The translations under genes and the position numbers were made by a program. A stretch of DNA of 64,000 bases. It comes from Perna viridis (taxonomy: Eukaryota). The notes under the pieces are model-generated. The model was not told the DNA's origin. It was given only the letters and a program-made list of their open reading frames with translations, and searched no databases. The first letter of the stretch is position 1; each line of letters begins with the position of its first letter. The stretch spans positions 24,304,001 through 24,368,000 of the forward strand of contig CM074522.1 of NCBI GenBank assembly GCA_037379345.1, written 5' to 3'. Positions 8,181 to 59,100 of this stretch are shown here, piece by piece.

Positions 8181-11100
8181 TGCAACCATTTCACAGTTTA
8201 TAGGGCCCGAATCACAGAGTAGCATTTAAAGTATTAACATCAGATTTTTGTATTTTTGAACATAAAATGTACTTTATTCATTTGGCTTTTCAAACTGCAA
8301 ACTCTGTACCAATGCATAGCCACTGAATTTAAATAGTTTTTAAAGAAAGCTGTGGAGAAGCATATTGTTCAAAATACCATTAGCAACGTATGAGAACGTC
8401 ACATTGACTCTCGTCCCTTACTCAAGATTAGTTCCGAGACTATCAAAATTACAGAGAAACCTGAAACCTGTATAAATCGAACCATTGTGGATTCTAAAAT
8501 ATGTTTGGATGATTGGGTAAGACCGATGTTTGGTTGATCAAGGTGCAAAATGCTTTTAAACTGATACAACAGGACTCTAAAATTTATCTTGTTTACACAT
8601 GTTCGGATTATTCGGGGTTCGGTTTAGGCAGGTTTCAGTGTAAAAGTCCAGAAGTTTCGGTGGAAGAACATGAGATACACATTCAGCGCATGCGTGTGTC
8701 TACTACACGTACCATTCGTCAGTTACAGTGAAAGCTAAAACTGGTAAAAAAGTGCTGTGCTCGCTTACATACTCCATATCAGTGTAATCACAAACAGAAT
8801 ATCCCGTAAAGTCAAAAATGTTTCTATGGAACGCCTTTTTCGAAATTCCATTCACTGTTCGTACTGTAAAAAAAACCAACAAATTTTAATAACAATGTAC
8901 TGATTGTATAAGGCCAAAAAAAGTATGTCTGTTGAGGGTTACATTCCTCCCCAAAAATAGGGTAGGTCGGTCGGCATTTTCATTTTATTTTTTTTTTTTC
9001 ATTTTATTTTTTCTCGACTAAAGTTGAGCCTATATTAGCAAAATAGCATCATGTTTAAGTCATGAAAGTGTATGGTTTTAAGTAGAAAGTTTAATTTTTA
9101 ACATACACATCTATGGAAGTCTATTTCTGTCATCGTGATAAGTAAAAGTCGCGAAAGATTATCTCGAAAAGTCGTGATAATTGGTGTATTTTGTCGACAA
9201 AAAGATGACAATTTCATCTCAAAAAGTTACGATAATTTTTCGTGATAGTTAATATAATTATGTCGACTGTTCGAGTTAATATCACGACTTATGTAGCCAA
9301 TATGTAGCTTCGACATAAATATTTTCGCAATAGCTTTTTACCAATATCACGACATTAGAGCTAATTATTGTGTCAAAATGGAGACATGTTATCTCAACTT
9401 GTCGTGAACTTATTGATATCTGTCGACATAAACTATCGCAATTTTATAGTTTAAAGTTATGAAAACGCCAAATAGTGTCAGCTACAAATTTTTTGCATTT
9501 TGATAAATCATGTTGACTTTTTTGTGAAATAACTTGAATTGTTGAAGTATTATTTCGACGAACGCGAAATGTCGCGACAATTTATCGTTACTTACCACGA
9601 AAAACTAGCTTTTGTCGAGATATTAAGTCAATACGTCAAGTTAATTCACGAAAAAGTCAACATGATATATCGCAACTCACATGTTTGGTTGTTGACACTA
9701 CTTGGCATTTTCACAACTTTAAATTCTCAGATTGCGATAGTTTATGTCGACAGATATCATAACTTTTACGACCAGGTGAGATAATATATCAGGATTTGTC
9801 ATGATAATTAGCACAAAATGTCATTGTATTAGTATAAAGTTGTCATAGTTTATCGTGAAAATATTTTATGTCAAAGGCACAAATTGTCGTCGGTTCCCTT
9901 AAAGTCGCGATAATTCAAGTAATTATATCGAACGGTCGACATAATTACCTTAACTATTGCGAAAAATTATCGTGACTTTTTGAGTTAAAATTGTCATTTC
10001 TGTCGACAAAATACCCAAATTATCACGACTTTTCGAGATAATTTTTCGCGACTTTTATTGACAGAATAAATTTAGCCTCAATTTGGCCTCAGAAACACGC
10101 CAGACATACATCGACATTGCACCCCCTCTAGAAGAATATTTAAAAAAATTAACCTAAAAAAATGTTTCGCCTCGCTCCGCTCGGTGATATTTAATCGTGC
10201 ACCCCCTAATCTAAAATCCTGGATTGATATTTGTGTTGTGACATTTTGGCTGGAGAAAGTCCAAGATTTTACAGTGTGAATTATCGATTTTTTTTAAAAC
10301 AGGACACGATTCGATAGATCAGTGCTATCTATGTAATAATAGTTCTTCATTATTATAAGGAGCTTTTGTTTAATAAGTTCTGATACAATCGTTGTGTTTT
10401 ACACGTATATCATATGCACAAATTTAAAGTAAATACTCACCCCTTAACTGTGTGTTCTGTTGAAACCCATTTTTGTAGTGCCTACACCTGTTCCGAGTAG
10501 TCGAAACATGGTGTGAAAGTAAGTTTTCAAGTACTTCTTTGTCTAAGAATCAGGCAAAATGTGTATAAGGTGTGACACATGAAGAAAAAAAAACGCAGAT
10601 TTACTTGCATCATCCAAGTTTTTATCCCTCATAACCACCAGAAATAACCATCAAAGTTTTCGTCAAATTTGCCGTATTAGATTTTGATTTGATGAAATGC
10701 ATCATGGGAAATTTGCGGGAAAATTTCCTGCATTTTTTCTCTAAACAAGCAATCAAAAACTATCTACGACACAGATATTGCCAAATAAATTTAAATAGCT
10801 TTCGTTTTTTCTAGATGTATTGAATATATTTGAGGAAGAAAAGACCAAATTCATAAAAATGATGTGCCATCCATTGCCTAATTCTTACACAGAATAGTAC
10901 TAAGGTCACCGAAAATTAAAATCTCTTTTTCAGGATACAGCCAATGATAAAGACGTTTATGGAGGTGATAATGATCCTTATCCACCAACTGGAGATAGGT
11001 AAATGTACGATATGACCGTATCTGTTTTGCCTTATTAGCTTGCCTGGACACTTGACATGCGTCGTTGTCGTCCGTCAACAATTTTAATACTAGTTTTTTC

Positions 11101-14100
11101 GCCTACATTTCAAAAACCGTAACTGGCACAGAAAGAAGACAATTACGTCTTACAGTTGCGATCACTTCTAAACTCTCCTCGATTCTGTCAGTATTTGCTG
11201 TCATAGAACAGTTCTAAACTGTCAGAAACTATACTGACCTTTGACACACCTTGTCAAGATCTGTGAGGGCTATGTACAGCTCTTTCATAATCTTTCATAG
11301 GTCATGACACGCTCCTGTCAGGAACTGTTCTAGGTAGAAATGTTCTGTTTTACGTCATTCTGAATACATTACCTAATCTTAAAAGCTAAAACCACTTCTA
11401 AATGACGTGAATTAAAAGCTTAAGAGTTCTTGACAGATTCTTACAATAAATAGCTAGAAAATATGTCTCTGACAGTATTACATTCAGAGCATGTACATGT
11501 AAATGATTCAGAAAAAAGCGGCAGCGCAGCCGAATCCCGTATCGTACGACGGGAAGTAAGCCTTGCTACATGTAAGTTTAAAATTTTAATTTTTTTTCAG
11601 ATTTTGATTAGACGTTTTTGTACGGCATGCAGTACTGACAAAAAATACAGCCCTTGCCTGACCTGTCGTACTAGATGATACGCCCCTGACTTTAAAGAAT
11701 TTGGACTGAAATTTGTGTGTCTCAGTCACTTGTATGATACAAAATACTTATATTAGACATTTTATACGAAAAATTCAGACCTATATGAAACTTTCAAAGT
11801 GTTCACACTCATACATTATGCCAGAATATGATAATTTTGAAGAATTTTGACTGAAGTATATGTGTCAGTCACCCACATGATAGTTACATGTATATTGAAA
11901 AAAAAACAAAACAAAACAAAACAAAAAAAACCTAATATTTTATACCATAATTTTATACCCTTATGGAAATTAAAAGTGCTCACACTCATACATTTTGCAA
12001 GAATATGACATTTTAAAAGAATTCTGACTGAAATATATGTGTTGCAGTAACCCATATGATAGTTATATTGAAAAATTTAATAATTTGTATGGAATTTTTC
12101 AAACCGTTCTATGCTTACTTTATATTCCCTGTATCAATTTGATCCGATGGAGCAGTGTAGCGAATAGAGTCGTCACATTCTGAGACGTTTGTATAATATT
12201 GATTTGTTGTGACATGTATCGTTAATTTGATCCTCTATCCTACATAATAACATCTAAAATGAACTGTCCCGTACTACCATACATCGTGTACTAAGTTACA
12301 AACCTAGATTAATCCTACGAGAAGGAATGACCTGGCCAGCTAAAGCTACACTTTAATATAGCCTAGCTGATCGAGTGGTCTAGGGCACTGGACTTTATGC
12401 AGGCGGTTTTGCTATAGAAGTCACAGCGGTACGAGTTCGAGTCTCGCGGAGGGAACGACCAAAAATTTACTTTGCAAATTTGACATGCAGTTCTAACATT
12501 GTTGGGAATTTTTCAGACCTATACATATAGGTATTTTTATACTTACCTACTCAATTGTTTCTTGTAGCTGAAAACAAGACAATTGATTGGTTTGGACTTA
12601 CATGTACCATTCGGTATCAGAATCAACCAATGGGTGGTACATCATTTTTCACAATTTTGTCTTTTTGCCTCAAATGTATTCACCAAATCTAGTTTACAAC
12701 CGAAAAGCTATTTAAATTTATCCTGAAGCATATGTGACGTAGATGTTTTTAACTGGTTATATAGACAAAAAGTGTGGGGCAATTTTCCGGCCATTTTTCC
12801 ATAGTGCATCTTACAACTCAATTTGACTTATCAAGCACGTAGGTGATTATTTCTGGAAGTTATGAGGTATTAATACTTGGATAATGCAATAAAACCCCTG
12901 CGTTTTTTCTTCATGTGCCACACCTTATACGCATTTTTACTGATTCTTAGACAGAGAAGTACTTACTTGATGGTGCTTAACTCGCGGGAAAGTGTAGATA
13001 ACTTCAGAAAAATAATTGATTATTTGCGAGTTAACGTCCTGTGGCAGATGTATAAATTTCATGAGAAAATTTGATCAGTTGAACGGTACTAAGCCGACGT
13101 GCTGAGCCGGATTTTGTTACTGTGTTACCATAGTAACAGCCCGGCGTTATTTCTGTAATCACATACTCCGATGAAATTATTCTGACTCTAAGCCGATCAG
13201 TCGTTCTTTTTTCTCGTATTTGCGCATACTTAGCGTATATTAATTAATAAAAAACAAAATCATTAATATCTTTCAGGCATGGCACTCAAGTTGCTGGATT
13301 GGCAGTAGCAGTAAAAGACAACAATATATGTACAGTTGGGACTGCATTTAAAGCCACACTTATAGGTCTGTATGTCTGCACACAATTAACCAATTCATGA
13401 GATATGTAATAGCAATCCAAGAATTCCCTACAATTCTGAATTGGTCCATTACAACGTATAATCAAAACAAGTGTAAATAATTGGTAAAGAAAAAAAGTTT
13501 GAAAAAAAATATTCGTCATTCGATCATTTTACAAGGAAAGGAAGTTTTGTAGAGACGATTATATAAACAGCACTGAATTTAAATCACCAAGACACATTAT
13601 AATAGACTTATTCAGAAACAGAGAGGCATAAAACAGATGCTAATATGTTAATTTCGAAAATTCAAAATTATTAACCTGTACTTATTGTCTCTTTAAAACA
13701 TAAGGTGTAGATTTAAAACCAATATAGAACTACGTCATCAATTAGAAGTCAATTAAATATATGGTGATTAATATCCTGCTGGAAATTTGTCTGCATGCTG
13801 AGAAAATGACCTATTTCCTTACAGAGTTGCAAACCTGACTAACCCACATTTTAAGTATGATCTAATCACCCGAAAAAATGATTTGCTATATAAAACAAGA
13901 GGCTCCCAGGAGCCTGAATTGCTTACCTTGTTAAATGTTTGCTTTTCTAAGGCAATAACTCAAACAAGGAGTTGTCCGACAATTTTGACTAAAAAGACTT
14001 TAGAAGGACTTATCATAAGGGTCATTGAAAGTTTCATTCAATCTTTTATAGCTTTCAAGATATTAGCTGAAAACTGCTAAAAACATAATTTTTGCCCTTT

Positions 14101-17100
14101 CAAAGACTATAATTCTAACGAGGAGTCGTCCGAAAACTTTGATCCCTTTCACAATTTTGTAGGCCTAATCATACGGATTATTTTAGCTACTGATAGTTTC
14201 ATCCTATCTATTATCTATCATAGTTTTCAAGATATTGGCTGAAGACTGTAAAAAAACCCCGCCATTTGTCACCTTTCAAGGGCAATAACTCTTACATGGA
14301 GTCATCTGACAACTTTGATCCTTGAAGACTTTTGTAGGCCTTATAACAAGGATCATTTCAGCAATTGAAAAAATTCGGTTAGACCTAAATGTTTTGGAGA
14401 TATATGAAAAAACCTTCTTACCGACCCCTTTGTTCTATTCGGCGGCCATGTTTTTCGACGGATCAGAAATCTCCACATCAGTTCTATGCGGTATAATCCA
14501 AGGAACACTCATACCAAGATTGGCTCCAAGTAGTCTCAGAAAAAAAGAGTTTTGAAAAATAGTAAACAACGACGACGGACGACGACAGACGACAAGTGAT
14601 GGCAATAGCTCAAATGGCCTTCGGCCAGGTGAGCTAATTAAACGTTAACTTTAGACCAATTGAATTATTTCCAAAGTATGTTACACCAGGGATGTATAAA
14701 CAATTTTGTATAGTTTAAAGCTGCAGTATATATATGTATATACAGTATTGTTGGCTGATATGTTTGACTACATATGAATATCAAAAATATCAAAAATAAT
14801 ACATAAATAATCTAAACAGATGGGATTTTCTCCGTTTTACCTACATTCACCAACGTTCATTATGAACGCTTGAGCTGTTGCTATTCTATGTTAATCTCTT
14901 TTGTCTCTGTTTGTGTAAAAACTTTGTCACTTCCTCTTTATGGTCCATAATCTGTTGTGTAATTGTATTCCAGAGGATAATTTTTCAAGTAACTGTCAAG
15001 TCTATTTTCGAATGTTTTAACTTTGATGATTGATACAACATGATTAGGTAGGCTGTCTCATGTGTCAACTACACGGTTGATGAAAAATATTTCTGAACAT
15101 CAAGTCTACATCTCCGTTTCACAACTTTCATACAGTGGCCTTTGGCGGTATTCCTATTCAATATTAACATTCCATCTGTCGTTTTCTCATCATAATTTCC
15201 GGTTAGTATTTTAGAAGTTCCAATCATATCTCATCGTAGCCGTCTGCATTTGAGTGTTAACAGTTTCAATATTTCCAACTTTTCTTGATTACTTTTCTCT
15301 AACATGAGCACTTTTCTGGTGGGAAGCGTAGCATTCATTCAAAGCTCCAGTCGTAGTGGTTGTTGAGATCATGCATGTTGTAAAAGTTCAACGTCATCTT
15401 CAGTTTTGATCTCTAAACAATTTGGTGTCATCAGCGAACAAAAATACTTCTGATAATACGCATTCAGGTAAATCTCTAATAAAGATGGCAAAACGTATAG
15501 GTCCAAGAGCAGATCCTTCAGGAATGCCGCTTGTGACTTCATGCCAATGTATATGGACATGTTGCTTTTTATCAGTCAGTTAGAAAATTCTGGATCTAAT
15601 AACAGGTTTTGTCACTAATACCATACTTTTTTTAAACTTCAGTAGAAGGCATTTGTGAGGGAATTGCTTCAAATGCCTTGAAAAGTCCATGTAGATGGAG
15701 TGTATTGTTCCACCTACTGATAAATCCAAACTTTTTGTTACTGAAGAGGTTTGGAGTGTTTATGTGGTCAGCTATGTTTTGCGTATTAGTTTTTCCATAA
15801 TTTTACATATTACGCTGGTAAGACATACTGGTCGGTAATTGGACGGTAAAGTATTATCTCCCTTTTTGAACAAAGCTGATATCTGACCAATTTTCCATTG
15901 TTGTGGCACGACGCCGCTGTTGAAACTTTCGTTTAATATCATGCAAAATGGAGTATCGATTATATCTGCCAACTCGAATAAAAATTGTGGGTGTATTTTG
16001 TCTGAACCTGTTGATTTCAACGTGTTAATTTCCTTAAATATCTTTGTAATGTCTTTTTTATTAATGGTGAATCGGAAGATGATAAAACATAATAACTCTT
16101 TCCATTGTCAACTGGGTTATCCGTCTCCAGTGTAAATACGCTACTGAAAAATTCAGCGAGTACTCGGCTTCGTCATAATCTGTTGTAGCAACAAAAAGAG
16201 TTCCTTCAACTTCAGTGTGAAATTCTGATATACCAGAAACGGATTTGCGTTTGGAGTTCACATATTTCCCAAAACAATTGCAATTGGATTTGCCAGATTT
16301 TGCAATAATTTCTCATTTTCTTTCATTTTTTGTTACTGAGTTCTCATTATTTCTCCCTTTCCAATAATCTCTATAATGTTTACTGTCCTTGTTTCTATAT
16401 AGCGGATCCACAATCTATGTTTTCGCTTAATGCACTTGACTGCGTCTTTCGACAATTGCATTTTGCTCTATTTACTACGTGGTTTTCTCTTTGGAATACA
16501 ATTGTCCATTCCCTGTGTAATTGAATATGGTAATCATGTCATCAGTATTATTGTTACTACAGTTGGTTCCAATCTAAATCTAGTTCCTTCCTTATTTTGT
16601 CATAATCTTCTTTGAAATAGTTGTATTTCTCGCTAACGATTGAGCCATAGATTATAAAACAATTATAATTAAAGTTCAGAATGTAGTGACCACGTGATCT
16701 AAGTTGGTTTTCATACCAGATTTTCGAAACTCGATTATTGTCATTTGCTATTAATAGATCTAGAACTGAAGGTTCCTGGCGTCGATTTCACAAAAAGTCG
16801 TAAGTGTAAAGTTGATCGGAAGTAATGACGTCACAACCTAAATTAGCATTGTGACGTCATAATTTACGATCAATTTTACACTTACGACCTTTTGTGTAAT
16901 CGACGCCTCATTTATACGATATCTCGTAGGTTTATCCACCAGCTGGTCAAAGTAGCAATCACGGGTACATTCAATAAATTTCAAGTATATGTTATCTTTT
17001 CCACTTCATTTTGACAAATCAATCTTAGGAAAATTAAAGTCTCCAGTTATAAGGATGTGGCTGAATTTACTTTTATAAGTAGCTCATTTAGTTCCAATAA

Positions 17101-20100
17101 GTAAGTGTCATCAGATGAAGAGCTTTTGTATATGCAGCCTATGAGCAGTTTATCATTGTCTCTCAAATTTATTTATATCCATACATGCTCTTTGAAATTC
17201 GATTCAATTTTGACCTCTACAGCTTTAACTTCAGTTTTACTTATATCTTATTCCTTGCCCTTCCCCTGATGGGAAACTATGTGGGAACATCTCATAACCT
17301 ATCAGTGATAATTCACCCTTGTTAAGTTTATATCTAGAGTTCTTCGGTAAAACCTCGGCGAACATAATACTATCTGGAGGTAATTTATAATCACCCATAT
17401 AACGAAGTTTTAATTCATCAAATTTGTTTATAAAACTGTCTGCATTCGTGTAAATGCATTTTACTTCATTTAATTCGCAATGTTCAACATTTCTGGTTTT
17501 AGAAACTATTTTACCGTTTAAATTCTTTCTACCAACATAATTGTCAACTAGCACATTTACATTGCTTCGTTCAGTATCTCTATCACGTACATGTATATTT
17601 ATGTTTGCTTTGGAATCTTTACAGTTCTCATGGCCCACGGTGGGCCCCTTACTATCCCCGACTTTTCATTGTCGTTTTTTGCCTTTGCCTCTTCAAATTT
17701 CTTTTTTGTAGTTATCTCTCTTATCATTTGTTATGTCATGTGATACACTTATACTTAAGTATGGACTTTCTTTATCAGTACCTTTCAATCTAGTTAAATT
17801 CTTCATGAATGAGCGTTTTGAATCGGTCTCTAATCACACTTTTTTCACGGGTCTAGCTTTCGACTTTTCATCATCTTTTATCTCCGGTCGCTTCCCAATT
17901 CTAGTGATATTGTCATTGTTATATTCAACTTCCAAATAGGTGTTCAAATTTTTGATATGTTCAGCATCACTTTGCTTTCTAGTTGCACTGCCATCACCCT
18001 TGCATTTTTTTGCATCACGAATAATTATGTTTTTTTCCCTTAGAATACTCTCACGTTACATTTGGTACGATTGTAAATCCTGCTGGAGGAGGTAGACCTA
18101 GGGTAATAGACACAACTCTTAAAAATCATTGGAACGTTTGTATTCAGCATTTTACATAAATTTCATGTAAGCATCAAAGTAACTTGGACTGATTTCATTC
18201 TGCTTCAAATGAAAGCTTGATAGGCTATGGTGAAATTGAATATGATACAAGCATATAACTGATTTCAAGCCATGTCCGTTACGGCAGGTCTACCTCCTAA
18301 AGCAGTTCAGATAGTTTTATATAAGAGATCGAAGTCTCGATTTTAATAAAATCTTACAATTTACAGGGATAAGGCTAATTGGTATTTATGCAGTTGACGA
18401 TGATGAAGAGGCAAGTGCTCTCAGCCATTTTTCTGAAGGCGTTGATATATACTCAAACAGTTGGGGGCCTCAAGACAAAACAGGTTTCGGTAAACCTGGG
18501 ACCATTACAAATATGGCACTTAAAGAAGGTGTAACTACGGTTAGTAAATGAAATTATAATTAAATGTGTTTCTCACCTGTGAATTCCGAGAACCATCATC
18601 CGATAGAATGAATAGTTATTTTTTCCCCTTGATTCATGGATACGTAATAAGGGCATTTTACTTGAAATTATGTTGACTTGTAAAAATGCAACTAGACAGA
18701 AATTTTTTCAAACATTTTGCATCGAAACTGTTTTTTCTCTGAAATGCTTGTATCAGGGTTCCCACATGTTTGCCTTGGTGAAATTCAAGGTCTTTTCTAG
18801 GTCTTTTCACGGATTTTTCAAACAATTCGGGCATTGACATCGTGTACTAAGTTACAGCGCTAAAGTATTCCTACAAGGAGGCCAGCGAAAGCTATATTGA
18901 TAAAGTAAAGCTGACCGAGTGGTCTAGGGCGCTGGACTCTGTGCAAGCGGTGTTGCCAAAGATGTCACAGCGGTACGAGTTCGAGTCCCGCGGAGGGAAC
19001 GACAAAACATTTGTTTTGCAAATTTGACAGTTCTAACATTTTTGGAATGTTTTGCAGACCCTTTTTAAGTTCGTTTAAGTGGTAACATGTATACACATGA
19101 CTATACAAATAATTAAATGTAAGTTTTTCATCATTCAGTACGAAAGTTTCAAAATTAACCGTGTGAATTAAATAACAATACCTCTTAATTCAATTTAAAC
19201 ATATCTGTATCATGCCATATTTTTATTTGCAAAATTATCAGAAGAACATGATATGGCATTCAAATTATTTGACTGAACATGAAGGAGTAATCAAAGGAAC
19301 CAAGGTTATAGCAGTAATCAAAAGAACGCAATCCAGGGACAAAGACCAGACATGGAAAACTGACATACACAACAAAGAACATAAAGTAACTAAAATCATA
19401 CTTACAAAGTAACAAAACCAAATGAGCAACTCGGACTCCACTAAAAACTGGGAGCATGGACCAGGTGCACGGGTAGGGTAAGCGTCCTCTGCTTTTCTAG
19501 AAACAACCGCCGAGTTGCTATAAAAAATCAAGTCCGGGGTAGACAAACGAGGAAAGGAAAACTATGACCTGTTGAATAAATCAGTTTTCATGGTGCAGAT
19601 GGATACACCATAACAATCCACGAGTTCACGATGACGACCATAAAACTTCTGTAGTGATGACTTCAATCTTGTAGCAACATAACCCTGTTCCAGATGTCTA
19701 TTTGTTAGTGTTCTATAAAAATAGAAACTATCCATATAAATGTCAATAAGGCAATCTTAACGTCATGATTTTTGCAAATATTGTTCATAGTGGTACTTAA
19801 CAGCCCCTAAGGCAGTTGACTCTGTCTAACTGAAGGCCTCCATCGCCACTTAAACAAAGGGGGGACAATTTGTAAACAATAAAAAAAACATATGGATCTT
19901 TATCGATAGTTTCTAAATGACATAATTTAGTAGGAACACATCTAAATAGAGTTAAACAGACATAAATATTGCCACGAAAATGAATTTATACGAAGATGTT
20001 TAATGATCTTCAAAAAATTTTATCCGACAATATTGTCGTTGGAACTCTCCGTTACTTATTATAACACAATTTTCAACTGCCGATTTCGTTAAGATACTTC

Positions 20101-29100: not shown

Positions 29101-32100
29101 AGACACAAGACAGTTTCTGTAGAAAGTACGCAGTGGACTAAAATAGCATTCAGGTGTGTAAACAAGCGATTTGGTAGAAAACAAATAAATCCAGAAGTAG
29201 AATAATGAAACAATTATTTGACAAATTGTGTACTTTGCTACAGGATTCCTAAGTTCAAGAAAGAGTTTAGGCAAACATTGAAGTTGTAATGTACAATGTT
29301 AAAGAGCAAGAATATTTCAGTGACTGGTGGACAGGTCACTTTTTCCCCTCACTTCAGCTTTCCTGGCGCGGTTATCTGACCCATCAATTGCCCTAATTAT
29401 GGCACCAACAGGCAAATTGATCTCACTGATCGGTAGTTCACTTTCTTCTAACTTGCAGTAAAGGGACCAGAATGTCTGTGCAAGTGATTGCACTCGTTTC
29501 CATTGTGAGCGATACAAGTTGATATGACATGCTTCATCAAGTATTTTCTCGACACTGTTTGCGACGTTGATCAAATCTCCTGGTAGAAATGTTCATGTAG
29601 CTTAGGATTTCTTTACAGTCAGTGTCTACAGTCTAGTTGTGTAGTTGCAAATTGTGCTAACTCAACTGCCAGGACTGCTGTATAGAGCTCTTTATTCGCT
29701 ACGTGGTTCTAGGCTTAGGGGCAACTTTGGCCTTTCCAAGGACGCTTGAAGTGAAAGTCACCTCTGATGTCCTTTGTTCGCAAGTAGACAGCAGCTGCAA
29801 TCATTTGTTTTTGACGTATCTGAAAATACCTGCAGCTCCCTTGAAGTACATTTACTGAGTTCTGGTATATATACTGTGAGCGTATTAATTTTTTTTGCGG
29901 TATACTGAAAGACGCGAAAAAAGGTCTTGCGAAATTGTTTTTGGCATTATGTTACACAAATAAAATTTAACCACGAAAATTGATACCTGCGAATATCGTT
30001 ACTTGACTGAATCCGGGAAAATTAGCAACCGTACAAAGTAATACGTTTACATTATTCTGGAAATTCTTAGGTCCTTGAGTGGTTCGAAGGACGCTTTCCA
30101 TTTTTCCAATTATTGACTGTGTCGTCTGGTACAACTTGAACCCAGTAAAGTAGAAGCTTCCTTAATATTATAACCCATCATCTTGGTTAACATTTCATTG
30201 TTCTTGTACCAGAAGAGTATAAGTTAGTTGCAATGAATTTCTCTAACTATTAAGTAGGAAAATATTTGCTGAACATCTGCAATGACAGCTACTATATTTT
30301 TCTTAGGCTTAGAAGGGCCCCAATTAGGTTGTTCGCTAAGTCCGTCCCGATGGTCGTAGGTCTTTTATTGACACTTCTATGCGTGTGACAGAAAAATCTA
30401 ACACGCCCTTTAAATGGTTGGGCTTTATAGAGTGATGGCAAATACTCAGGAATGTGCTATCACATTAGTGCTATATGCAATCAGCAATCATGGGAACCGA
30501 GATCCTAACGGAAACCAAGAGAATGTAATCCAGAGACAAAGACCATACATAGAAGACTGGAATACAACAAACAACACTAAAAGATATATACAAAGTAACA
30601 ATAGTAACAAAAGTAAATGAGCACTCCACCAAAAAGTGGGAGCGAGAACCAGGTGCACCGGTAGGGTAAGCATCCTCTGATTTTCTCGAAACACTAGCTG
30701 AGTTGCTCATATAAAGCGAAGTCCAGGGTAGACAAAAGAGGAAAAGAAAAAAAAAAGTATGACGCGTTGAACAAATCAGTTTTCATGGTGGAGATGGATT
30801 CATCATAACGATCCACGAGTTTAAAATGACAACCATAAAACTTATGTAGTGACGACTTCAATCTTGTAGCAACATAATCCTGTTCTAGAAGTCTCATTGT
30901 AAGAAGTCTAGCACGGCACAAGAAATCTGCGTAGGTATGGCAATATCTACCATTATGTATGAGTTGGGACGAATACTCCATACACAGGTGCTAAAGGAAT
31001 GTTTCCATAGATGAAAGAAAAGCCGTCGTGTTTGTGTATAGTTTGGTCAATACTTATCTTTTACACAGACCTCTAAGTGTAGGGCAAGACATGAGACTGA
31101 CTTTAAAGTATCGGCCACTGCCTATGGGTGCAATTAACATTTGACACGCATTTTAATTTAGCGAAAAACAATTCATTTAAGTTAACGAAACTTAAATTGA
31201 ATCAGTCATTGGTAGTAATAAGTGGTTTAATAACTAAGCATAAACGCACATCTTAACACAAAAAAAGCGGTGCTTTTCTGGTATAATTATTATGTGTGCT
31301 AGTGACCGAAATATATTTCTTTAGTTACATCGATGACACTAATCACTAGTACATGATAAATTCTTTCCGCCGGATATATGGAACATACATAAATATTGGA
31401 TTATGTTCTGTATACACGCCTTGTAATCATTTCGTGATACTTAACCGCTGATTTGTACAAATTTTCTTTGATGCGTACTTGCCGATAATGCAAGGATCAG
31501 TGAACTGACTTGATGTTTACTTGCTGATAATGCAAGGATCGGCGAAAAAAAGATATGGGGGCAAAAAAACTAACGTTTTACAGTGATATTTGAACGACTG
31601 GTTAATTCGTAGTTGTAACCGTTTTGTAAACAAATACCACAAATAATTAAATATCAATACAAAAACAAAATAACTGAGGTCCATGTACATGTGTACATTT
31701 GCTGATGCAACCTAAAATGCCATTATAAATCAATACTATTCTTTTTTAAAGCAACGAGAAGGATTTGTTGCATTCTTCCATGCACATGTTTGAAGAACAA
31801 AAAAATGGGAATGACCGTGATGCTATTGCGTATTTTATGCAGCAGATGTTAATCTTGACTTTTATACTTGTTACTGTAAAGTATTATTATAAAGATAACT
31901 TACAATGATGATTGGCCTGTGTATGCCTTACATCTTCACTTCACATGAATAATTTGAAATTCAAGAAAACTGGCAAAATCGTTAACAAATCATAACTCAC
32001 CATTAAAGACTCTAAATAATCCTTGATAGAAACGCACAAAAAATTCAAGAAATAGTTCTTGTGATATGCCAATCAAACTGACGCATGGGATTAATTTGGA

Positions 32101-32229
32101 CTGGCATGATTATTAGTGGTCATCCGATAAAATAGCCTCGATTTGATTAATATTTTTTGGTAATATTTTGAACATATTGCAGATAACAAAAATACTTTTC
32201 ATTCATAAATCCCAAATTATCATTATGTA

Positions 32230-32267
<38 letters not shown>

Positions 32268-35200
32268 GTCTCAGATTGTGACGACTCTATTCTCTACACT
32301 GCTCCATCGGATCAAATTGATACAGGGAAGATAACGTAAACTTATAGAAGGGTCTGAAAAATTCCCAACGATGTTAGAACTGTCAAATTTGCGAAGCAAT
32401 TTTTTGTCGTTCCCTCCGCGGGACTCGAACTCATACCGCTGTGACATCTATGGCAACTCCGCCTGCACTTAAGTCCAGCCCCCTAGACCACTCGGCCAGC
32501 TAGGCTATATAAAAATATAGCTTTTGCTGGCCGGGTGATTCCTCCTCGTAGGATTAATCTAGGGGTGTAACTTAGTACACGATGTATGGTAGTACGGGAC
32601 AGTTCATTTAGGTGTTCTTATGTAGGATAGAGGATCAAATTAACGATGCATGTCACAACAAATCAATATTATACAACGTCTCAGAATGTGACGACTCTAT
32701 TCGCTACACTGCTCCGTCGGATCAAATTGATACAGGAAAGATATATAAACGTATAGAAAGGTCTGAAAAATTCCCAACGATGTTAGAACTGTCAAATGTT
32801 TTTATATATATATGATCAAACTGATACAGGGAAGATAACGTAAACTTATAGAAGCTATATTTTTATATAGCCTAGCTGGCCGAGTGGACTTAGTGCAGGC
32901 GGTGTTGCCATAGATGTCACAGCGGTACGAGTTCGAGTCCCGCGGAGGGAACGACCAAAAATTTGCATCGCAAATTTGACAATTCTAACATCGTTGGGAA
33001 TTTCTCAGACCCTTCCATATATATATCATTGTGGGTAAAATACTGTATTCATCTCAGTAATATCAGGAGTTGTGTCCATTACCCTCGGTCCGCCTCCTTA
33101 AGTAGCACTCTTTGTAAGAATCATTCAAATTTTGTAATATGTGATACACCCTGCTCTTAGGGGATAATTCACATTATTTATAATTTATATCTCCTTTGGA
33201 CAAACCACATGCTAATTTCTGTTCACTATATCACTTTAAACAAAATATGAAAAATAAAAATATGAATAGGCTTTCCAATAATAAATCAAATTTTGCATGA
33301 TTCTTTCTTTAAACAACCCACATGCTAACTTCTGATTACTATATCAATTAAAAAAAATGTCAAAAATGAAAATATGTAGGCTGTCCAATAATAAATCACA
33401 TTTTGCATGATTTTTAGCTAGATAACTCTTCTTAATTAATCATTTCTTTCAGTGTGCATTCTTCTAATGTAATCATTAAATAGAACGTTGTAAACAATAC
33501 CAATCCAGGGAACCAGGTTATAGCGGTAATTAAAAGAACGCAATCCAGGGACAAAGACCAGACACGGAAAACAGACATACACAACACAGAACATAATGTA
33601 ACTAAAATAATACATACAAAGCAACAAAAAGCAAATGAGCAACTCGGACTCCACTAAAAACTGGGAGCATGGACCAGGTGCACCGGTAGGGTAAGCGTCC
33701 TTTCCTTTCTAGAAACACCCGCCGAGTTGCTCATAAAAAGTCAAGTCTGGGGCACTCTTGTTTCCTTTTGTTAAGAAATTTAAACTGGTTGTAAGACACA
33801 CCCGATTACAATAGATGGGTAAATATTATTGGTCAGTATCAGCTTACTGTCCAGTAATTAAAATGGTAAAATAACTAAGGTACGAGATCACAATTAATTC
33901 CACTTGATTTTTATTGTGTTTTATCCTGATTCTATTTTTTGGTCCTTGCTGCGGAAATGTACGTAGGACCAGAATCGACATTACATTGAATTTTGTTTTA
34001 TTCTGCAATTTTGTACAGGAGTTGTGATTTGGTCATGTGAAAGAATGTGAAAATTTAGGATATTTGGCAGTGGTCACTCCTCATGTCTACGGGGTCTCTT
34101 ATCATTGTTGTTAAAATACAAAATGTTGGTATTTTTATTCTGCAGCACTTGCATGAATTTTGTTTTATGTATGATTTCTATATTAGTGAAGTGTATTGAG
34201 TTTAAAGCAGTGGATTTTATATTAGTTATAATAGGTCTGTTAAAATGCATTACGAAATCAATTGTGGTCCCTACCATACGTAGGTGGCAGAATAACCTAC
34301 TGAGTAGGCTTGCATAAAAATAAAATTGCCGTTTATTCTGTGATGAGACAAGATACACCAATAAAACTTTCAATGTAATTTGAGCATGTTAATACTAATT
34401 GTTGAAATTACGAAATTTCCTTTTAAGAGTCACCCAATCGTTCCACTACAAATTTACATTGCAGTTAGTCAAGTTCTGGGCTTTGGTTTGATTGATGCAC
34501 ATGCAATGGTAAACAGTGGAAAAACATGGTCCACTGTCCCTCCGCAGCAGATGTGTGAACAAACTAAACCGTAAGTACATTTGTTATGTTTTTTTTTTCA
34601 TTTTATTATTAATGTATATGTAAGCAGTTTATTTATAAACACGAAGGGGACATATAAAATCTGTACACTTATCCTAATCCTTTCACCTTTACTAATAGGG
34701 AATGCGCTGAAGATTTTATTTCAGCTAACGGTTCAGACAAATTCAAAAAATTACAAAATACACTGGTTTAAAAATTTTCATTGTCAATTGTGCATAGAAT
34801 TGAAGGTTGAAATATAGCAAAAATTGAAAAATTAACCACGTACGGGTAAAATAGTCGATTTCATGTGGCTTTTTTATGTAGAAAATACATTTAAAATGGT
34901 AATACGGGGTAAAACGAAAAACTAAACTTCTACAATGTGAACAAATCTGTTTTCTTGGTTCAGAAGGCCACACCGAAAGAATCGACGAGGCCATTTTATA
35001 GGCCGTAAAGCAGTGATGAATTTGTTCCAATGTTAGAAAGAAAACATGGAACTAATCTTCTGTGGGCTCCGGTATAACGTTTAAATAGCCATAGATAAAT
35101 CAAAACTAATCTTCTGTGGGCTCCGGTATAATGTTTACATAGCCATAGATAAATCAAAACTAATCTTCTTGTAGCTTCCGGTATAACGTTTACATAGCCA

Positions 35201-40394: not shown

Positions 40395-43300
40395 ATATAG
40401 GTAGTTGTCAAAAAGGAAAATATGTATAACAAATGGCAATATCAGGGCAAAAACCGGAATTTGGAAAACAACTGAAGTGTTCCTGACCTGGTGCAGGCAT
40501 TTCAATATGAAAGCTGGATTAAAACAGGTTTAATAGCAAACTAAATCTCCCGCTACAATACTGCTGGAAGGAGTGTGATCAAACTTGGCATGACCTTCAC
40601 TTACAATATCCTTATTTATCTGTGTGTATTAATTTACGATCTGGCGATAAACCATGGCCATTCGTCAACAAATGGTTCTAAGTAAGCTAAGTTCTAAGAT
40701 ACGCAAGAAAACTAAGGTTCTATCATTGATTAAATGATTTCTGTGACATAGGAACAGTATGGTCAACAGTCCAATTTTGAGTTATTGCTTTAATTTATAA
40801 GACTTAAAAAGGCTAATTATGACCAGTTGAGCAATTCAGGCTTTCGACAGCCTCTAGTTTGTTTACTTGACCCAAACCTCCAACAGGCTTACAGTCCCTG
40901 AAGCGATCCCGGCAACGCTTTGACGGATCGATGACCGTTGACTGGTGACCGATCTGATCGCAGTTTTGTTATGTAAAATGACGAATGAATCGTAAAAATT
41001 AAACACATGTACAAAAAAGTATATTAAAAAGTAAATTGATGTTCAAATTTATTGCATAATGTAAATATGTGTAAAATTGACAGAGAAAACACTGGAAACT
41101 GTAAAATATATTGACCGCTCTGTGGTCACGTGATGCGATCACCGGTTTGATAGGTAGGTTTGACGGATCGATGACTGATCGGAATTTTTGTTGTACGGAT
41201 CGGTTCAGGTACTGTATCAAGGCTGGCGAGCGATACTGACTCGGTAGAGATTTTGTTGATATATAGGTAAATGAAGGCGATAAAAATGAAATGATTCTGG
41301 TGCAAAAAAAGTTCTTTCATATTTAAACATTAGATCAAAACACAACCATTCGAAGTCAACAAAATATTGAATCAAATTGAAAAAAGAACATTAACCCAAT
41401 GACATGACTAAGGTTCTTTATAATGCCATGAGGTTCATTTATGTCTAAACTAAAACAAACATCTCACGACAGAGAAATAGATTTAAAGAAACTATACAGT
41501 GAAACAATAATGCATGGGTGCACAATTAAAGTGGGAAATAAATGTACATCGCGAATAACTAAGAAAATCCATAGAATGTCTTTAACACGTCGGACTCCAA
41601 ACAATAACCAACATTTCTAATAGATTTGAAACAACTGACACATCTCAAGTCTCCTACCTCAAGGCATAGAGTGAATATGGTAATAATAACACAGGCTCAT
41701 AAAACAACTTAGACTCCTAAAACAGCCCATAGAATAAATTTGAAACATCATATAGGAATAGGTTTGACTCCTGACATAATTCATACAAAAAGTCTGATTG
41801 TAACAGTAGTTCCCGGAATGTTTACTAAAACGGTAATTTCTTTTTTAAGACAAGGTTGAAATCACTTAAAAAATTTATGGACAGTAATGTTATGAGTTTC
41901 AATACCGATCAAGAAGAGTTTCTTAATTCACATCCGGTTCAGTCTGGAGTATGAATATCCAAAAGCACCAGTAAAAACAAACAACAGACACAGCTAATCC
42001 GGTTTAAATCGAAACCGTATTTGACTTTATAATTATTGTTATTCTCAGACGATTGCTATGCGTAGAATACAGTCATCAAACTGACATAGTATTCATTGAA
42101 ATACATGTGGTTTAGATAAGGTTTATGGAATGTTTAAGGTATGGTAGAGTAATAAATGGAACCAAGGTTATAGCGGTAATCAAAAGAATGTAAACAAGGG
42201 GCAAATACCAGACATGGAAAACAGACATACACAACAAAGAACATAAAGTAACTGAAATCATACATACAAAGTAACAAAAGCAAATGAGAAACTCGGACTC
42301 CTGTAAAAACTGTGAGCATGGACCAGGTGCACCGGTAGAGTAAGCGTCATTTGGTAAAAACAAATTACGATGTACACATCAAAATCAAACAATTGTTATT
42401 TTGTGGCTAGAGAGAAAAAGCAGACAGTTATTTAAAGATTAAATCTCTGAAAGCATTAAGTACCACTGCGGTTAAATATCATGCAAATGTGATTCATGTC
42501 TGAAAAGCCTACATGTTTTTCATTTTAATAATTTGTTTGAATTGTAATAGTAACACAGAAATTAATATTGCGTTTTTCATATAACCTGTGTTCTTAGGGA
42601 ATAAAAATTATATAGAATGCAATAAAGATGTCAAAATCAAGGGAGATAACTCTGACACTCAAAAAACGATATAATCGATTGGATGTCTGATGTTGATTAT
42701 CTCCTGAGAACAGAGAGATTGGAATAAATAATTACACATTAAATAATAAATACCCATAAAACAAGTTAATTACAAAAATAACAATATGTAGCCTTTTTAA
42801 AGGTCTATCACATTTTCAGTCTTTGCATGATTCTTACAAACTTGAAGACAGTTACTTAAATCATCTTTATTTATAAAATAAAAAACCGTCTATAAAATAA
42901 TTCAAGTTTCCTTTCAGTATGAAGGCTTTTGTTATTGCAGTTACAACCATTTTTAGCGTATTCCAATTAAGACGATTACAAAATACAATATCTTAATTGA
43001 TTAAAAAGGACAAAAACTGTTCATTAAGATTACAACATAGGTCCGGAGGTTTATGTATTTTGACAATTTTTTAAAAAAAATAATCAAATTAGAAAAAAGA
43101 AAGAAAAAAAAAACACACATCATTTTGACATTTATTTATTTTTATTAAAAAAATCATTTTGATTTTTCATTGTAATGCAGCAACTCTTCCCTGTATTAAA
43201 CGCTCAATTCTCCCTTCCACATTTTTCCGTTCCCCTGGCCCAGCGTCACATTGTCCATGCCATATTCATACTAATCATTATTTACGCGTAATAAATATTG

Positions 43301-47100: not shown

Positions 47101-50100
47101 CAATGATAGAGGAGATTCAAGGTAAAACATAAATCAAAGAAATAAAAATGACCGCTCTTGCCGAGTGTCAATTTCATATGCAATATATAAATAGTAATTA
47201 AACAATAACGAACAACCAAAGGACAAGCTTAGACTTCTAATGTGGGCTATATAATTTTTGAACTACAGTCAAACCTCGGTAGCTCGAACTCCAAGGGACC
47301 ATTGAAATGTGTTCGAGTTATCGGGAGTTCGAGAAATTGAAGTTCGTATATTTTCCGGATTTTCGGTGCCGGTCCGAGTTCGACTTTATCGTTAGAAATT
47401 GCCTACTTCTTACGAAGTTGTGTTAGTTCGTGGATCTTTTCCGTTCGCGTTTGGAAGATTATGATGATTTGTGAACATTAAAAATGCTGTGTTCGCTTTT
47501 AAAAACGTTCAGAGTTCGAGTTCCTTGGTCAATAATTTGTTTTCATCCGATTTTCTTTCATGCATTTATCATACCAACATTCTCGAACTTCAATCAGTGT
47601 TATGTGAAAGATCAAAACTATCTAATTAGTGATGACTTAAATTTTACCTGTAATTAACTAAAATGACACTGATTAATGGTAGGGTTTCAGTTTTTCACCC
47701 CTTTTATTACCCAAGCTGACAAAATTGCTGACGAGTTCGAGTTAGTGAGGGTTATTCTCTAAGATATATTACCGAACGGACCGACTAGTCAGTTCGAGTG
47801 TTCGAAAAATCCAAGGTTCTTTATACTGATTATATAGAAGAAAATTTTGGTACTTTGAATTGCGTTCGAGAAATCCCGGGTGTTCGAGCGAGTGAAGTTC
47901 GACTGTATAAAATAAAATGAATTTTGTTAAAATTTTAAACAGACACGAATCATTCATAGCTGATCTTTATAAAAACTGATACTTAAAGTGCGTTTATACA
48001 ATTTTTGAGTTCGAAAGTTTAATCATTGAAGTTGATTAAACCTAGTATACCCAATCGTGGTTTCTACTGTAATGAGATTAATCTATGATAAGGTGAAGGC
48101 AAATGGTGCAACAAACGTCTTACTACTTTACCAATCATGTCAAATATGCTTACATCAAAGTGTTCCTTTTTTGGTTATATATAATTGCATATTAAATTGG
48201 ATATCTCAAATATGTCATACGTTTAATAATATCGTTTGGTTAGATCCTGCAATCTCAATTTCAATCTCTTATCTTTCTAGATTGAAGTCATCACTACAGA
48301 AGTTTTATGGTCGTCGTCATGAACTCGTGGATCGTTATGGTGTATCCATCTGCACCATGAAAACTGATTTATTCAACGGGCCATAGTTTTCATTTTCTCG
48401 TTTGTCTACCCCGGACTTGACTTCTAATGAGCAACTCGGCGAGTGTTTCTAGAAAAGCAGAGGATGCTTACCCTGCCGGTGCACCTGGTCCATGCTCCAA
48501 TTTTTAGTGGAGTCCGAGTTGCTCATTTGCTTTTGTTACTTTGTATGTATGATGTTAGTTACTTTATGTTCTTTGTTGTCTATGTCTGGTCTTTGTCCCT
48601 AGATTACATTCTTTTGATAACCGCTATAACCTTGGTTCCCTTGATTACTCTTTAAACACAGCTAGTTTATTTGAGGTAAAAGTCAGGCAGTGGATGAGAC
48701 ATGGTGCAAGGAAACCATCATTTTGAAAGTATAATTAGATAATTTGCATTAAATCACATTCAAGGAAATAGGAGATCATTTTCCATATAATTTTTGTAAA
48801 TTGAGTTATAATTTCATTGAAATTCACTGAAAATGAACATCTCAAGAGCAGATAACGCTGTCGAAACCCGCATTTTTCTTGCATCCTTTTTAATGTTTTC
48901 TGAGCAAATCCAGTGATACAGATATAAAAAAAATGCTCTTTTCAAATAGAGAGAGCAACCTTGATTGAAATTATATTGTCAGTGGGGTTAGGATATGCAA
49001 TATTACCCATTTTCCCCGATTCCTACAAAAACTAACATTTAAGGCATTTAAATTAATAATCCTTCCTATTAATTGCATTCATTGAAAAAGATATTTGTAC
49101 ACAGTCTGGATTTTATTGCCGATAAGTAGTAAAATTTGTCTATACCGAACCCGGAATAATCTGAATACCTGTGTAAAGGTAACACTTTATAAAGTATCCT
49201 TAACATAACATTTTGTAGGTTTAAACTGGTCTGGAGATGTCACGTCAGTTAACTGCTAGTAGTTCTTAATTTGTACATTTGTGTAATTCATACCCAGTTT
49301 CTTTATTGCCGTTGTAGCAAGGGACTTAACCCATAAAACTGATTTTTAAGTGTGTTTAATTGTGTAATATTTTTCCCACAGTGGCCAGAGTTTAAGCGGG
49401 GAGGGTTGTGATCACGCCAAAGTATCTAACTCCATCGCCTTTTTTGCGCCTGTCCCAAATCAGAAATGTCTGGCTTCTTTTTGTCTTGTTTCGTTTTTAC
49501 CTTGTGTAAAATGGGTAAACGAGATGCTACCGATTGAAATATTTCCGGATTTATCACATTTCTCTTCCTAACTGGTTTTGATTTTAAACGTTACAAAGTT
49601 ATACTTCGGCAAAAAAATTAAAAATGAAGAAAGCAGCAGAGTCTTGTCAAAAGATGAATTCCTTTTTCCGTAAACGAATAGCTATTCTAGATAATACATG
49701 TAGTGACAATGTCCATTCAGATGATCAGGCTACGGAGCCAGTAGTGGCATCCACTGAAATTTCAGACAAATCAATGCCAAGTTACAGTGATAGTTGTTCA
49801 TCCAGCCAGTCCTCTATCAAAAGCTCGAAAAGAAATGGCCTTTCTTATCATGATATTGGTGATATATCGAGCAAAGATATGACCCGGGACAATAATATCA
49901 AAATGCTTATGCCGATGATTAGCTAGGAAAGTGTAGACAATTTCTCTTTCCCTACTAGGTATGTACCATTTTCTATCATTGATCTAAAATAAATGACCGG
50001 CCATTATTTAAACTGTCACAACCCGTAGGGAAAAGACAAATTCGAGGCAAGACCAAATAAAATAGAGTCATCAAGGATATGCCGGAGGTTATCAAAATTA

Positions 50101-56100: not shown

Positions 56101-59100
56101 CTAAGAAATAATCACTCACTACAACTGCAGTGGGCTGATTTTTGAGAAATACCGTTGCAGTAATAAAAAAATATCGTATTTGTTACGTAAGGATGCAATA
56201 AGGGGTCAAATATCCCTATCATTGAAAACAAGGTTCAAAGAATTACAATAATTTGAAAATCATATCCTTTACAAATCAATATATTCAGGGCGGGCGATAA
56301 ACCCATCCGAATTTGTTTGATAGAATGTGTTTTATAGACTATAATTCCCCCAAAAACTGGATTTGCAATATGATTTTAAATTAAGAACTTGCAAGTGCTG
56401 TTATATTTTGGTATCAAGGTAATGTAACGTTAAAAAAGTTGGTTTATGTTTTTAGAAGTTGAGATATCGATGCCTCAGTATCAGTTATCATTAAGGAATT
56501 CATTGCGATCATTTTGAAGATTTTTCTTTATACAAATAACATCTGCAGTTGAGGACGGTATACTACATTACCACACGAAGGAAGAACCTTGCTCTAAAGA
56601 CAAAGTCGAGGAAGATTTTCTTTTTTGAATGTGTTTATCTGGTATCCATCTCCAAGTGCAGGTAGTATTTGTTATATAATACTGAATATCTTTAAAATCA
56701 TGTTTGGATATGCGTAAATTACTAATGTAATTTTTAATTACGTCTAAACAAGTTATCGATTGATGTTTTGTGTTTGGTGGAATTATAAAACGTGGATATC
56801 GTAACGGAAATAGCAAGGCAAATTTCCGGTTGAAACGGGTGGAATCCTTGACGGAAGGATGGTATTATTTAAGAAATTATGGTTTTATTTGGGGTGGATT
56901 CTTTTATGATCAATGAAAAGTGAAGATCTTTTTGTATAATGTTAAAAATATATGATACTCTTGTTTCAACGTTGAAATGTATTTCAACGACCATGTTCAG
57001 TTCACTATTGAAGTGTCCAGATAAAGTGAGGAACATGTAAATAATTTAAAAAGCAGAAACAAACACTTACAAGTACATTTCCGGGTTATACTCAATCTTG
57101 GATGACTCTAACCTCGAATAACTCGAACATTTTGCCAGTTCCCTTCGACTTTGACCTAACAAAGTATGATTGTAGTTCATTTATGATGAAATTGGGTACA
57201 GGCATATCAATTTATAAATGTATTTGACCACACTGTTTCTTAACTGCAAACACAGGTTGACCTTGTTCATATGGTTGGATCTATCCACCGCTAGTAAATG
57301 TAACTACATTGTTTTATTTATGTTTTAAATATTTCAAAAGTTTGTTACTGTACCACTTCGTTAAAGATTTGATCAAATCGTTACTCTCATTAGATTAAAA
57401 AAAGAGAATGTGCTGTAATAAAATACTCTTGGTTATTTATTGAGCATGGACTTTTTACAGGTTTGGTGGGTATAAGTACAAGCCACCAGCATCTGTATGG
57501 TTTCGGTACATTTCGATGAAACAAATTCTCCAGAATTTAACTTGCCCAGGGGATGCTTATAGACTTAATGATTGTACCCATGCAGGTTGGGGAAAAGAAT
57601 GCGAAGGGTGCAAATGTAGAAACCAACATCCACTCGCGTTAAAATGTTGGCTTCCTAATGAAAAAGGTAAATATATATATATATATAGAAAGGTCTGAAA
57701 AATTCCCAACGATGTTAGAACTGTCAAATTTGCGATGCAAATTTTTGGTCGTTCCCTCCGCGGGACTCGAACTCGTACTGCTGTGACATCTATGGCAACA
57801 CCGCCTGCACAAAGTCCAGCGCCCCTAGACCACTCGGCCAGCTAGGCTATATAAAAATATAGCGTTCGCTGGCCGGGTCATTCCTCCTCGTAGGATTAAT
57901 CTAGGGCTGTAACTTAGTACACTGTGTATGGTGGTACGGGACAGTTCATTTAGATGTTAATATGTAGGATAGAGGATCAAATTAATGATGCATTTCACAA
58001 CAAATCAATATTATACAACGTCTCAGAATGTGACGACTCTATTTGCTACACTGCTCCATCGGATCAAATTGATACAGGGAAGATTTGTAAACGTATAGAA
58101 AGGTCTGAAAAAGACTCAACGATGTTAGAACTGTAAAATTTCTGAAGATTCTGAATATTGTTTTATGTAAACACATGTTTTGTGATGATTTTTAGCATTG
58201 TGTAAAAATATCAACTAAAAATATTAACAAACACTATAATGATAAGAAACTATATGAAAAGAATGACCTTAATGTTTTTTTTTTAATTTATTCCGTGTGA
58301 ATATAAGCACGGAGTTGTTTTATCCAACATCCTTCCCGCTTCACTTTCCTTTGATCGCTCCAGATTGTGTTTTGTTCCACGATTAGAATTTTCATTTTGT
58401 TGAAATCATCGAGGCAATGTTTTGGCAATCTGAAGTGTTGACTCACAGGGAGTAAAGACTTTTTTGTTAGGTCGCTCAAGTGTCCGTTCAAGCGTTGCGA
58501 AAAGGCTGTTTAGATTCACCAACATAATGAAAGCCACAGATTGGACAGTGGCGCAAATATATCACAATAGCACTGTTGCAGTGCACGTTACAAAATATTT
58601 TGTAGTGTTTCCCCGTGACCGTTCTGGTGAATAATGACGAGTGGTGCATTTGTTTGCATCATTTACACCATTTGTTACCACAACAGCGACTCTCGCCTGG
58701 AGTCAAGGTTGGGTTTAGATATTTCAGCCCTTACAAGCAGACTACGCAAACTGTCTGGCTGTCTGAAAGCTGTATGATAGGTGGTTCTGGAAAGACTTTT
58801 TTTCGACAGAGGCTCAGTGCTCACGAGTGATATTGTGGCTGTTTTTAAGGCAAGGGTGATATGTTTGTGTTGTACTTTTTACACTTTTTCTTTGCCTTGT
58901 ACTGTAACAGGGTACTCCTTGTGATATTGTTATTCTTTGGAACTCTTCTTTAATGGTCTTGTATCGATATCCCCTTTTTCCTTTATCATTGGAACAAATT
59001 CACCTTAGCCTAAGGCTTGACTAAATGATATACTTTTAGTCAGGTGAGAGGGATAACAGCTATTAGGCATATATTTCATATCTCGCTTATATCAGATACA

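Follow-up and report, generated by a model that had tools for sequence, protein, structure and literature searches.

A two-ended, TA-targeting repeat with a tRNA-Leu-derived segment in Perna viridis, and a terminal module that it shares with Neptune-type Penelope-like elements

The window analysed here is a stretch of 64,000 nucleotides from Perna viridis, and it carries a repeat at four loci: 12091-12520 (plus strand), 18837-19060 (plus), 32260-33019 and 57673-58141 (minus). A first-pass annotation of this DNA had described one repeat of ~410 bp at these places, and both the identity of the four loci and the size are borne out, as the repeat period in 29 of the best copies from a genome search is 409 bp. 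These young copies match their own consensus at 97.6-99.3% identity. The unit is a non-coding repeat, whose longest stop-free frame spans 80 codons. Searching the 723-Mb, 46-contig genome returned 2,399 candidates, and 40 stretches of 10 kb placed at round coordinates contained six insertions (five with stricter filters), from which we estimate ~9,000-11,000 insertions genome-wide (95% range ~3,000-24,000). A sister repeat of ~465 bp, 64% alike to the unit overall (1,403 genome candidates; 25 copies examined, L349-L373, e.g. L350 and L357), shares the unit's tRNA segment and junction hairpin and has a separate pair of ends, ~125 nt apart, and a separate pair of modules. Positions within the unit are given below as phases on the tRNA-sense strand, and E1 (phase 36-58) and E2 (phase 117-133) are the phase ranges in which 3' ends were counted. 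The features of the window that bear on this repeat are as follows.

32224-32263: (TA)n target microsatellite, (TA)20, where the long arm ends at E2
32260-32797, minus strand: long arm, 1.3 units, 5' end at phase 1 and 3' end at E2 (phase 123-128), 95% identical to the consensus
32309-32356, minus strand: second E1 site with module M1
32352-32364, minus strand: the other T5, ~145 nt past the tRNA start, missing from the sister family
32412-32505, minus strand: tRNA-Leu-derived segment, 3' limit approximate, +1 equivalent at 32505
32421-32430, minus strand: B box
32488-32498, minus strand: A box
32488-32536, minus strand: junction hairpin with a T5 in its loop, the T5 lying 5 nt upstream of the tRNA start
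32632-32682, minus strand: internal E2 site (AGAC), then hairpin module M2 (32632-32650)
32719-32765, minus strand: internal E1 site (AGAC), then hairpin module M1 (32719-32734)
32798-32853, minus strand: inversion joint, a TA-rich linker plus a 40-nt piece of phases 40-78
32852-33019, plus strand: short arm, phase 275 to E1 (phase 46), then TA; its tRNA part carries an internal deletion
12091-12520, plus strand: unit copy, phase 24 to E1 (39), 431 nt, 91%
18837-19060, plus strand: older 5'-truncated unit copy, phase 213 to E1 (38), 84%
57673-58141, minus strand: young unit copy, phase 408 to E1 plus TA, 97%
58145-59067, minus strand: old fragment of Neptune-type family A, 79%, directly adjoining the 57673-58141 copy at its 5' end

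The sequence from 32260 to 33019 is a single head-to-head insertion of the E2+E1 type, with a minus-strand arm of 539 nt, a short joint and a plus-strand arm. What had been called an inverted appendix is indeed an inverted piece, but it is more than an appendix, being a second head-to-head arm that ends at the other fixed site. Three copies in the window exceed one unit, as annotated (431, 539 and 469 nt, the latter two counting terminal TA), and the 18837 copy is without a TA tract. Other inverted structures in the window are a 74% inverted repeat pair (10529-10900 and 12604-12964) on either side of the 12091 copy, a 915-bp imperfect, MITE-like palindrome with well-matched outer arms (9143-10057) and a 130-bp hairpin (16778-16907).

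The ends of the repeat were mapped at 269 loci not picked by unit content, namely the window together with PLE, tRNA and random loci. Segments counted if they had at least 40 nt and at least 85% identity and did not lie at a locus edge, which gave 77 insertions with 112 segments. Outer 3' ends concentrate at two sites, with 32 at E1 and 29 at E2, together 61 of 92, where 9.8% would be expected by chance. The two sites lie 82 nt apart (3' ends at phases ~38-46 and ~120-128), and TA adjoins 54 of the 61 canonical ends. The 5' ends of the 112 segments are scattered almost everywhere in the unit. Phases 275-300, which contain both the tRNA head and an internal TA run, form a modest peak (17 of 112, against 7.1 expected). 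Almost half of the segments (51/112) continue from upstream through the tRNA head, 21 of 112 are longer than one unit, and the longest seamless run measures 1,076 nt, or 2.6 units. With fixed 3' ends and scattered 5' ends, the 409-bp unit is thus not freely permuted. The different end points that had suggested circular permutation are real at the 5' side, whereas free permutation of both ends does not hold, and the overlaps of ~15, ~45 and ~120 bp seen among the window copies reflect varying 5' ends together with the use of either E1 or E2.

When loci picked by unit content are included, the set grows to 187 insertions, 60 of them head-to-head. At least one non-canonical end is found in 34 of the 60; the 26 with two canonical ends comprise 24 E1+E2, two E2+E2 and no E1+E1 pairs, an excess of E1+E2 (24/26) that has p=5e-6 against a 50:50 choice. 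The same pairing accounts for seven of the eight pairs with two canonical ends in the set not picked by unit. Direct repeats of at least 7 nt, sought as target duplications, occur at 3 of 187 insertions, against 2.9 by chance. The earlier judgement that the repeat does not behave like a SINE agrees with these counts, given how few 5' ends fall near the tRNA head (17/112) and that target duplications are at chance level. Partial tandems, inversions and an optional tail are features described for PLEs in PMC8557442, and the insertion pattern of the unit is the Penelope-like 'tail' signature.

The tRNA part lies inside the unit and derives from tRNA-Leu, as first annotated: local scores of the segment against host Leu genes are 41 (TAA), 45 (TAG) and 43 (AAG), above shuffle maxima of 28-30, while Thr, Lys and Met genes score 19-27 with shuffle maxima of 28-33. 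The TAA, TAG and AAG genes thus score alike, and the 'TAA' by which the segment had been named is private to the 32265 copy: among 108 copies, it is not one of the ten most frequent loop variants. Inspection shows that the segment has lost the acceptor stem and retains three of five T-stem pairs. ARAGORN finds no tRNA gene in the window, and Rfam returns no tRNA (RF00005) match for two unit copies. The suggestion of an RNase P/Z substrate is not upheld, in view of the missing acceptor stem and the ARAGORN result. The A and B boxes, which are established Pol III promoter elements, are kept, and on this sequence evidence the segment is probably a Pol III promoter rather than a processing substrate. 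The tRNA genes, for their part, are found in long tandem arrays (L384-L389, G000:C5:24.73-24.79 Mb; L161; L093): the Leu(TAA) pattern has 166 matches, with a 528-bp period among the matches listed, and the array periods are 1,087 bp for Leu(TAG) and ~1,090 bp for Lys/Met.

A T5 run ~60 nt downstream of the tRNA-like segment is present as described (27 of 29 young copies have it, at +145), but its role as the key terminator is not sustained, as it is missing from the sister family. A different T5 is common to both families and sits in the junction hairpin; in the sister consensus it is the sole sense-strand run of at least four T, five bases before the tRNA start. It is intact in 23 of 29 unit copies and 11 of 25 sister copies. 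An RNA running from the tRNA head to the hairpin T5 would be one unit long, and in modelled folds the ends of this RNA pair in both families with a probability of at least 0.95 at most stem positions. In 23 actual copies, 15 of the unit and 8 of the sister, with 17 distinct, the hairpin pairs in 91% of cells, and between the families it shows one compensatory and two G-U-preserving changes, in what is a single contrast of two families. The hairpin T5 is thus predicted to be the terminator, and the hairpin the end-pairing stem, of a one-unit RNA. Length variation, considered as a possible mark of a joint, is found at the hairpin T5 in 37 of 121 cases and at the other T5 in 7 of 181; another TA-rich site varies in 35 of 134 (p=0.49 vs the hairpin T5). 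The nested stems noted earlier (ATAGAG/CTCTAT and GTCACA/TGTGAC) form in the predicted fold, which has a z of about -3.5, both strands folding equally better than chance. Internal priming drops the sequence past the start, so linear copies of a Pol III-start RNA would shrink in every round; young copies reach 2.6 units, which implies a rebuilding of tandems. No sequencing run on record as RNA contains the 409-bp unit; it is covered by contigs from runs presumed to be RNA, which are silent on start, end, strand, level and circularity.

The reported absence of a hammerhead core holds for both strands of the unit, and no CUGANGA core occurs in the sister either. Rfam gives no ribozyme for two unit copies, and its MIR821 matches are due to the inversion. 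A possible hammerhead remnant after the B box was considered and dropped. A pattern that combines a hammerhead with the unit's end matched at 11 scattered places, which make up no family. At L381-L383 (G000:C9:22.2-22.7 Mb), three near-identical hammerhead-like matches precede an end resembling E1.

Families of PLEs were gathered through GIY-YIG searches, with PF01541 scored for 150 of 486 candidates, and these yielded a Naiad-like family (B) and several families with the RT before the GIY-YIG. Families A and C-G carry a CX2-5CxxC linker and a minimal hammerhead core, and we call them Neptune-type from architecture alone. Among the Neptune clade features of A/G is a frame of 897 codons in which RVT_1 precedes GIY-YIG, each scoring slightly below its Pfam cut-off. 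In 26 of 30 loci, Neptune A stops at one of two sites separated by 88 nt (17 and 9), and Neptune G does so at two sites ~83 nt apart in 18 of 30 loci, seven of them from one local array; both families and the unit end in AGAC plus TA. Taken as a whole, the unit resembles the Neptunes weakly: its local alignment with Neptune A is within chance, and a first, looser alignment was not significant (z=2.0, 36/1000 shuffles). When alignment is anchored at the ends, the unit and Neptune A give z=3.95 (0/2000 shuffles), the true E2 being the best of 818 phase/strand windows; Neptune G gives z=2.5 (25/2000), with its best window at phase 208 and not at E2. The second-best windows lie one tail further, which led to the finding of a module after each unit end.

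This module consists of AGAC, 21-34 nt, YGYATY, a stem-loop and GATCC, and it follows both ends of the unit, the sister, Neptune A and Neptune G, so that there are eight modules in total; the second modules of Neptune A and G emerged only after full-length 5' regions were fetched. By inspection, the inner stems of the eight differ yet pair, the first variable pair being kept in all eight with three pair types. The pattern, which was derived from the unit, sister, Neptune A and Neptune G families themselves, has 294 matches in 1.78 Mb, compared with two on the reversed sequence. Among matches assigned to groups, all but 2 of 268 fall within those four families, and families B and C-F have none. 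A match of 9 nt that links unit phase 191 to the start codon region of Neptune A was rejected, as it is missing in the sister and present in the Neptune D tail, and five older A-like loci show, by inspection, no closer match to the unit.

Position in the genome does not single out a partner, since the unit is enriched beside Neptune C-F (16 per 100 kb) as much as beside A (8) and G (16), with 1.25 at random loci. Seamless joins of the unit or sister to Neptune G, A or C without TA occur at L289, L297, L330, L351, L269 and L249, and these may be template switches or nested insertions with deletion. In the window, a 97% unit copy abuts a 79% Neptune fragment (58145-59067), which favours later insertion with deletion, and we set the joins aside as proof of co-copying because nested insertion is possible. 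Family B was rejected as a partner: it has other ends, no module and a unit density at the random level. Its 3' end is the commonest repeat of the window (1-187, 19280-19706, 30483-31112, 33502-33752, 42146-42348, 48279-48653 and 62301-63552), and the family shows an N-terminal GIY-YIG, a DKA motif and no TA targeting in the window. At L122 (G000:C6:47.136-47.151 Mb), four family B GIY-YIG matches stand ~5.1 kb apart, and two copies examined are 99% identical. A 4.1-kb tandem duplication of a Neptune A 3' part with unit copies lies at L331 (G000:C12:17.76 Mb), with four GIY-YIG-region matches in register.

Our sequence comparisons make it reasonably likely that this two-ended, TA-targeting repeat, which shares a module with Neptune A and G, is copied in trans by a Neptune enzyme from a predicted Pol III RNA. 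The parts of this reading differ in strength. Very probably, a PLE enzyme would make the copies by target-primed reverse transcription from two sites inside the RNA, and head-to-head pairs would form when both nicked (TA)n strands prime, one at E1 and the other at E2. The first-pass proposal of a non-autonomous PLE partner with a tRNA module and no hammerhead gains support from the fixed ends, the TA targets and the lack of duplications, and its proposal of a template longer than one unit is supported as well. The enzyme donor is likely to be Neptune A, Neptune G or a close relative, and the hairpin 21-34 nt past each AGAC would position the enzyme; such a protein would nick (TA)n, bind the hairpin module and start cDNA at the upstream AGAC. 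Slightly less likely than not is a predicted scheme with two joint parts, in which Pol III would start at the tRNA head, sometimes pass the +145 T5 and stop one unit on at the hairpin T5, and the resulting one-unit RNA, through its paired ends, would allow either a jump by the enzyme or closure by a ligase, rebuilding tandems without a ribozyme. The T5 at +145 means that many transcripts would end early. More tentatively still, we propose a type of ribozyme-free Penelope passenger, in which a Pol III one-unit RNA with paired ends would act as a circle and a portable 50-nt AGAC-hairpin module, present twice, would direct a Neptune dimer to both nicked TA strands.

The same mobilisation by a PLE could draw on another template, namely a Pol II or read-through transcript of genomic tandems, with the tRNA segment a passenger or the source of a dead-end 150-nt RNA. 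Such a template would sit well with the +145 T5 that 27 of 29 young copies carry, with runs of up to 2.6 units and with the location of PLE promoters in upstream tandem copies, as given in PMC6765202. We regard it as unlikely, as the A and B boxes and the T5 hairpin are kept in two families 64% alike, linear templates would be expected to shorten by internal priming so that tandems need rebuilding, and no long array is present among the loci looked at; the 5'-end peak at 275-300 also speaks against it, though the internal TA run explains that peak equally well. Nor do we think it at all probable that the unit is a mere pseudo-LTR and tail of an autonomous PLE with a tRNA-like segment, even though its end region is laid out as a Neptune pLTR end, tail and 5' UTR, and family sampling was partial (PF01541 scored for 150 of 486 candidates). 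Copies run into the next unit at every phase, unit-PLE joins vary in position, the 11 scattered matches to a hammerhead plus unit end form no family, and 80 codons is the longest stop-free frame. None of the hammerhead-bearing families has the terminus of the unit as its end, and the refuting condition set in the first-pass annotation, a unit that is just the pseudo-LTR of a known autonomous element, did not hold.

A retrozyme with a self-cleaving motif of an undescribed kind would account for the size, the tandems and the stable fold (z about -3.5), which match animal retrozymes (PMC7229834), and for the GAAA that stands before a stem in the junction hairpin. This has a slimmer chance again, for there is no CUGANGA core in unit or sister, the would-be cut triplet differs between the two, and two copies find nothing in Rfam. 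The reading as an ordinary LINE-dependent tRNA SINE, duplicated locally at a later time, is largely refuted, and we place it lowest: a tRNA-Leu head with A and B boxes is there, and bivalves have tandem and palindromic SINEs (PMC11481361), but 51 of 112 segments run through the head from upstream, there are two internal 3' ends, and target duplications are absent while E1 pairs with E2.

One PLE enzyme has been studied in purified form so far (PMC11167929), and much about how such enzymes recognize RNA, pick two internal starts and assemble tandems has yet to be worked out. The reading of the unit as a trans-copied Neptune passenger bears on each of these points. Two autonomous and two passenger families provide eight natural versions of the module at a near-constant distance past each start, which allows a direct mutational test of the recognition signal, and the strict E1+E2 pairing predicts different sites for the two target strands. 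Should the one-unit Pol III RNA exist, then retroelements can form tandems without needing a hammerhead, and Pol III-driven passengers occur in all three retrotransposon classes. A ribozyme-free passenger, if true, would stand on the PLE side as the counterpart to SINEs and TRIMp3, and it would identify the signal in the RNA by which PLE start sites are set.

The closest likeness in layout is to MRC1 and other Chlamys partners, which, as described by Craig et al. 2021 (PMC8557442), share with the unit the lack of an ORF, partial tandems, head-to-tail multimers, inverted truncated copies, an optional tail, microsatellite targets and a 3' end resembling autonomous families. The unit differs from this type in its likely Neptune-type partner and in having a short repeated module as the shared part, its tail is 82 nt compared with the 30-40 nt described, and it has a probable tRNA-derived promoter, of which that account makes no mention for MRC1. 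Animal non-LTR retrozymes (PMC7229834; bioRxiv 10.64898/2026.07.22.740005) are likewise non-coding tandems of the 170-400-nt class with a proposed PLE dependence and a stable fold. However, retrozymes are defined by a type I hammerhead, and the unit, which has none, does not belong to them. A 2020 review (PMC7761336) describes retrozyme repeats as without a conserved motif pointing to a helper element, whereas the unit has one in its module.

The schistosome repeats Sm-alpha and Sj-alpha (PMC6765202, PMC2770079) resemble the unit in being tRNA-related and SINE-like, with apparent Pol III transcription and spread from tandems of at least two units. They differ in carrying a hammerhead, and those accounts mention no PLE tail or partner. 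TRIMp3 elements (Cassandra, Helenus and Ajax; Kojima 2024, PMC10886601) similarly hold a Pol III promoter derived from a small RNA inside a non-autonomous element; Cassandra RNA spans one promoter copy to the next, and Helenus is present in mussels, according to the same source. Unlike the unit, they are described with two LTRs, a primer-binding site, a polypurine tract, 4-5-bp target duplications and LTR-element enzymes. The unit is a continuous tandem without an internal segment, and its duplications of at least 7 nt are at chance level. With tRNA SINEs (SINE2) it shares the A and B boxes, and it has neither their start at the tRNA head, nor a LINE-type tail, nor target duplications. Our search of the literature found no description of a PLE passenger with a tRNA promoter; Repbase, Dfam and paper supplements lay outside that search and may hold the family.

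For the enzymology, the nearest comparison is PAc, a Poseidon element of the anole, whose reverse transcription from two internal sites defines the tail (Frangieh et al. 2024, PMC11167929), and which in vitro requires downstream RNA and can dispense with hammerhead cleavage. As reported there, PAc is like the unit, in our reading of the latter, in its two internal starts that define a tail, its AT-rich targets, the need for RNA downstream of the start, and the cutting and extension of both strands. PAc is autonomous and belongs to another clade, and its start is not homologous to the target, whereas in the unit both starts lie on an internal TATA, with which (TA)n might pair. Against this background, the present analysis adds the end statistics, the module found in the unit and in autonomous families alike, and a position for the conserved T5.
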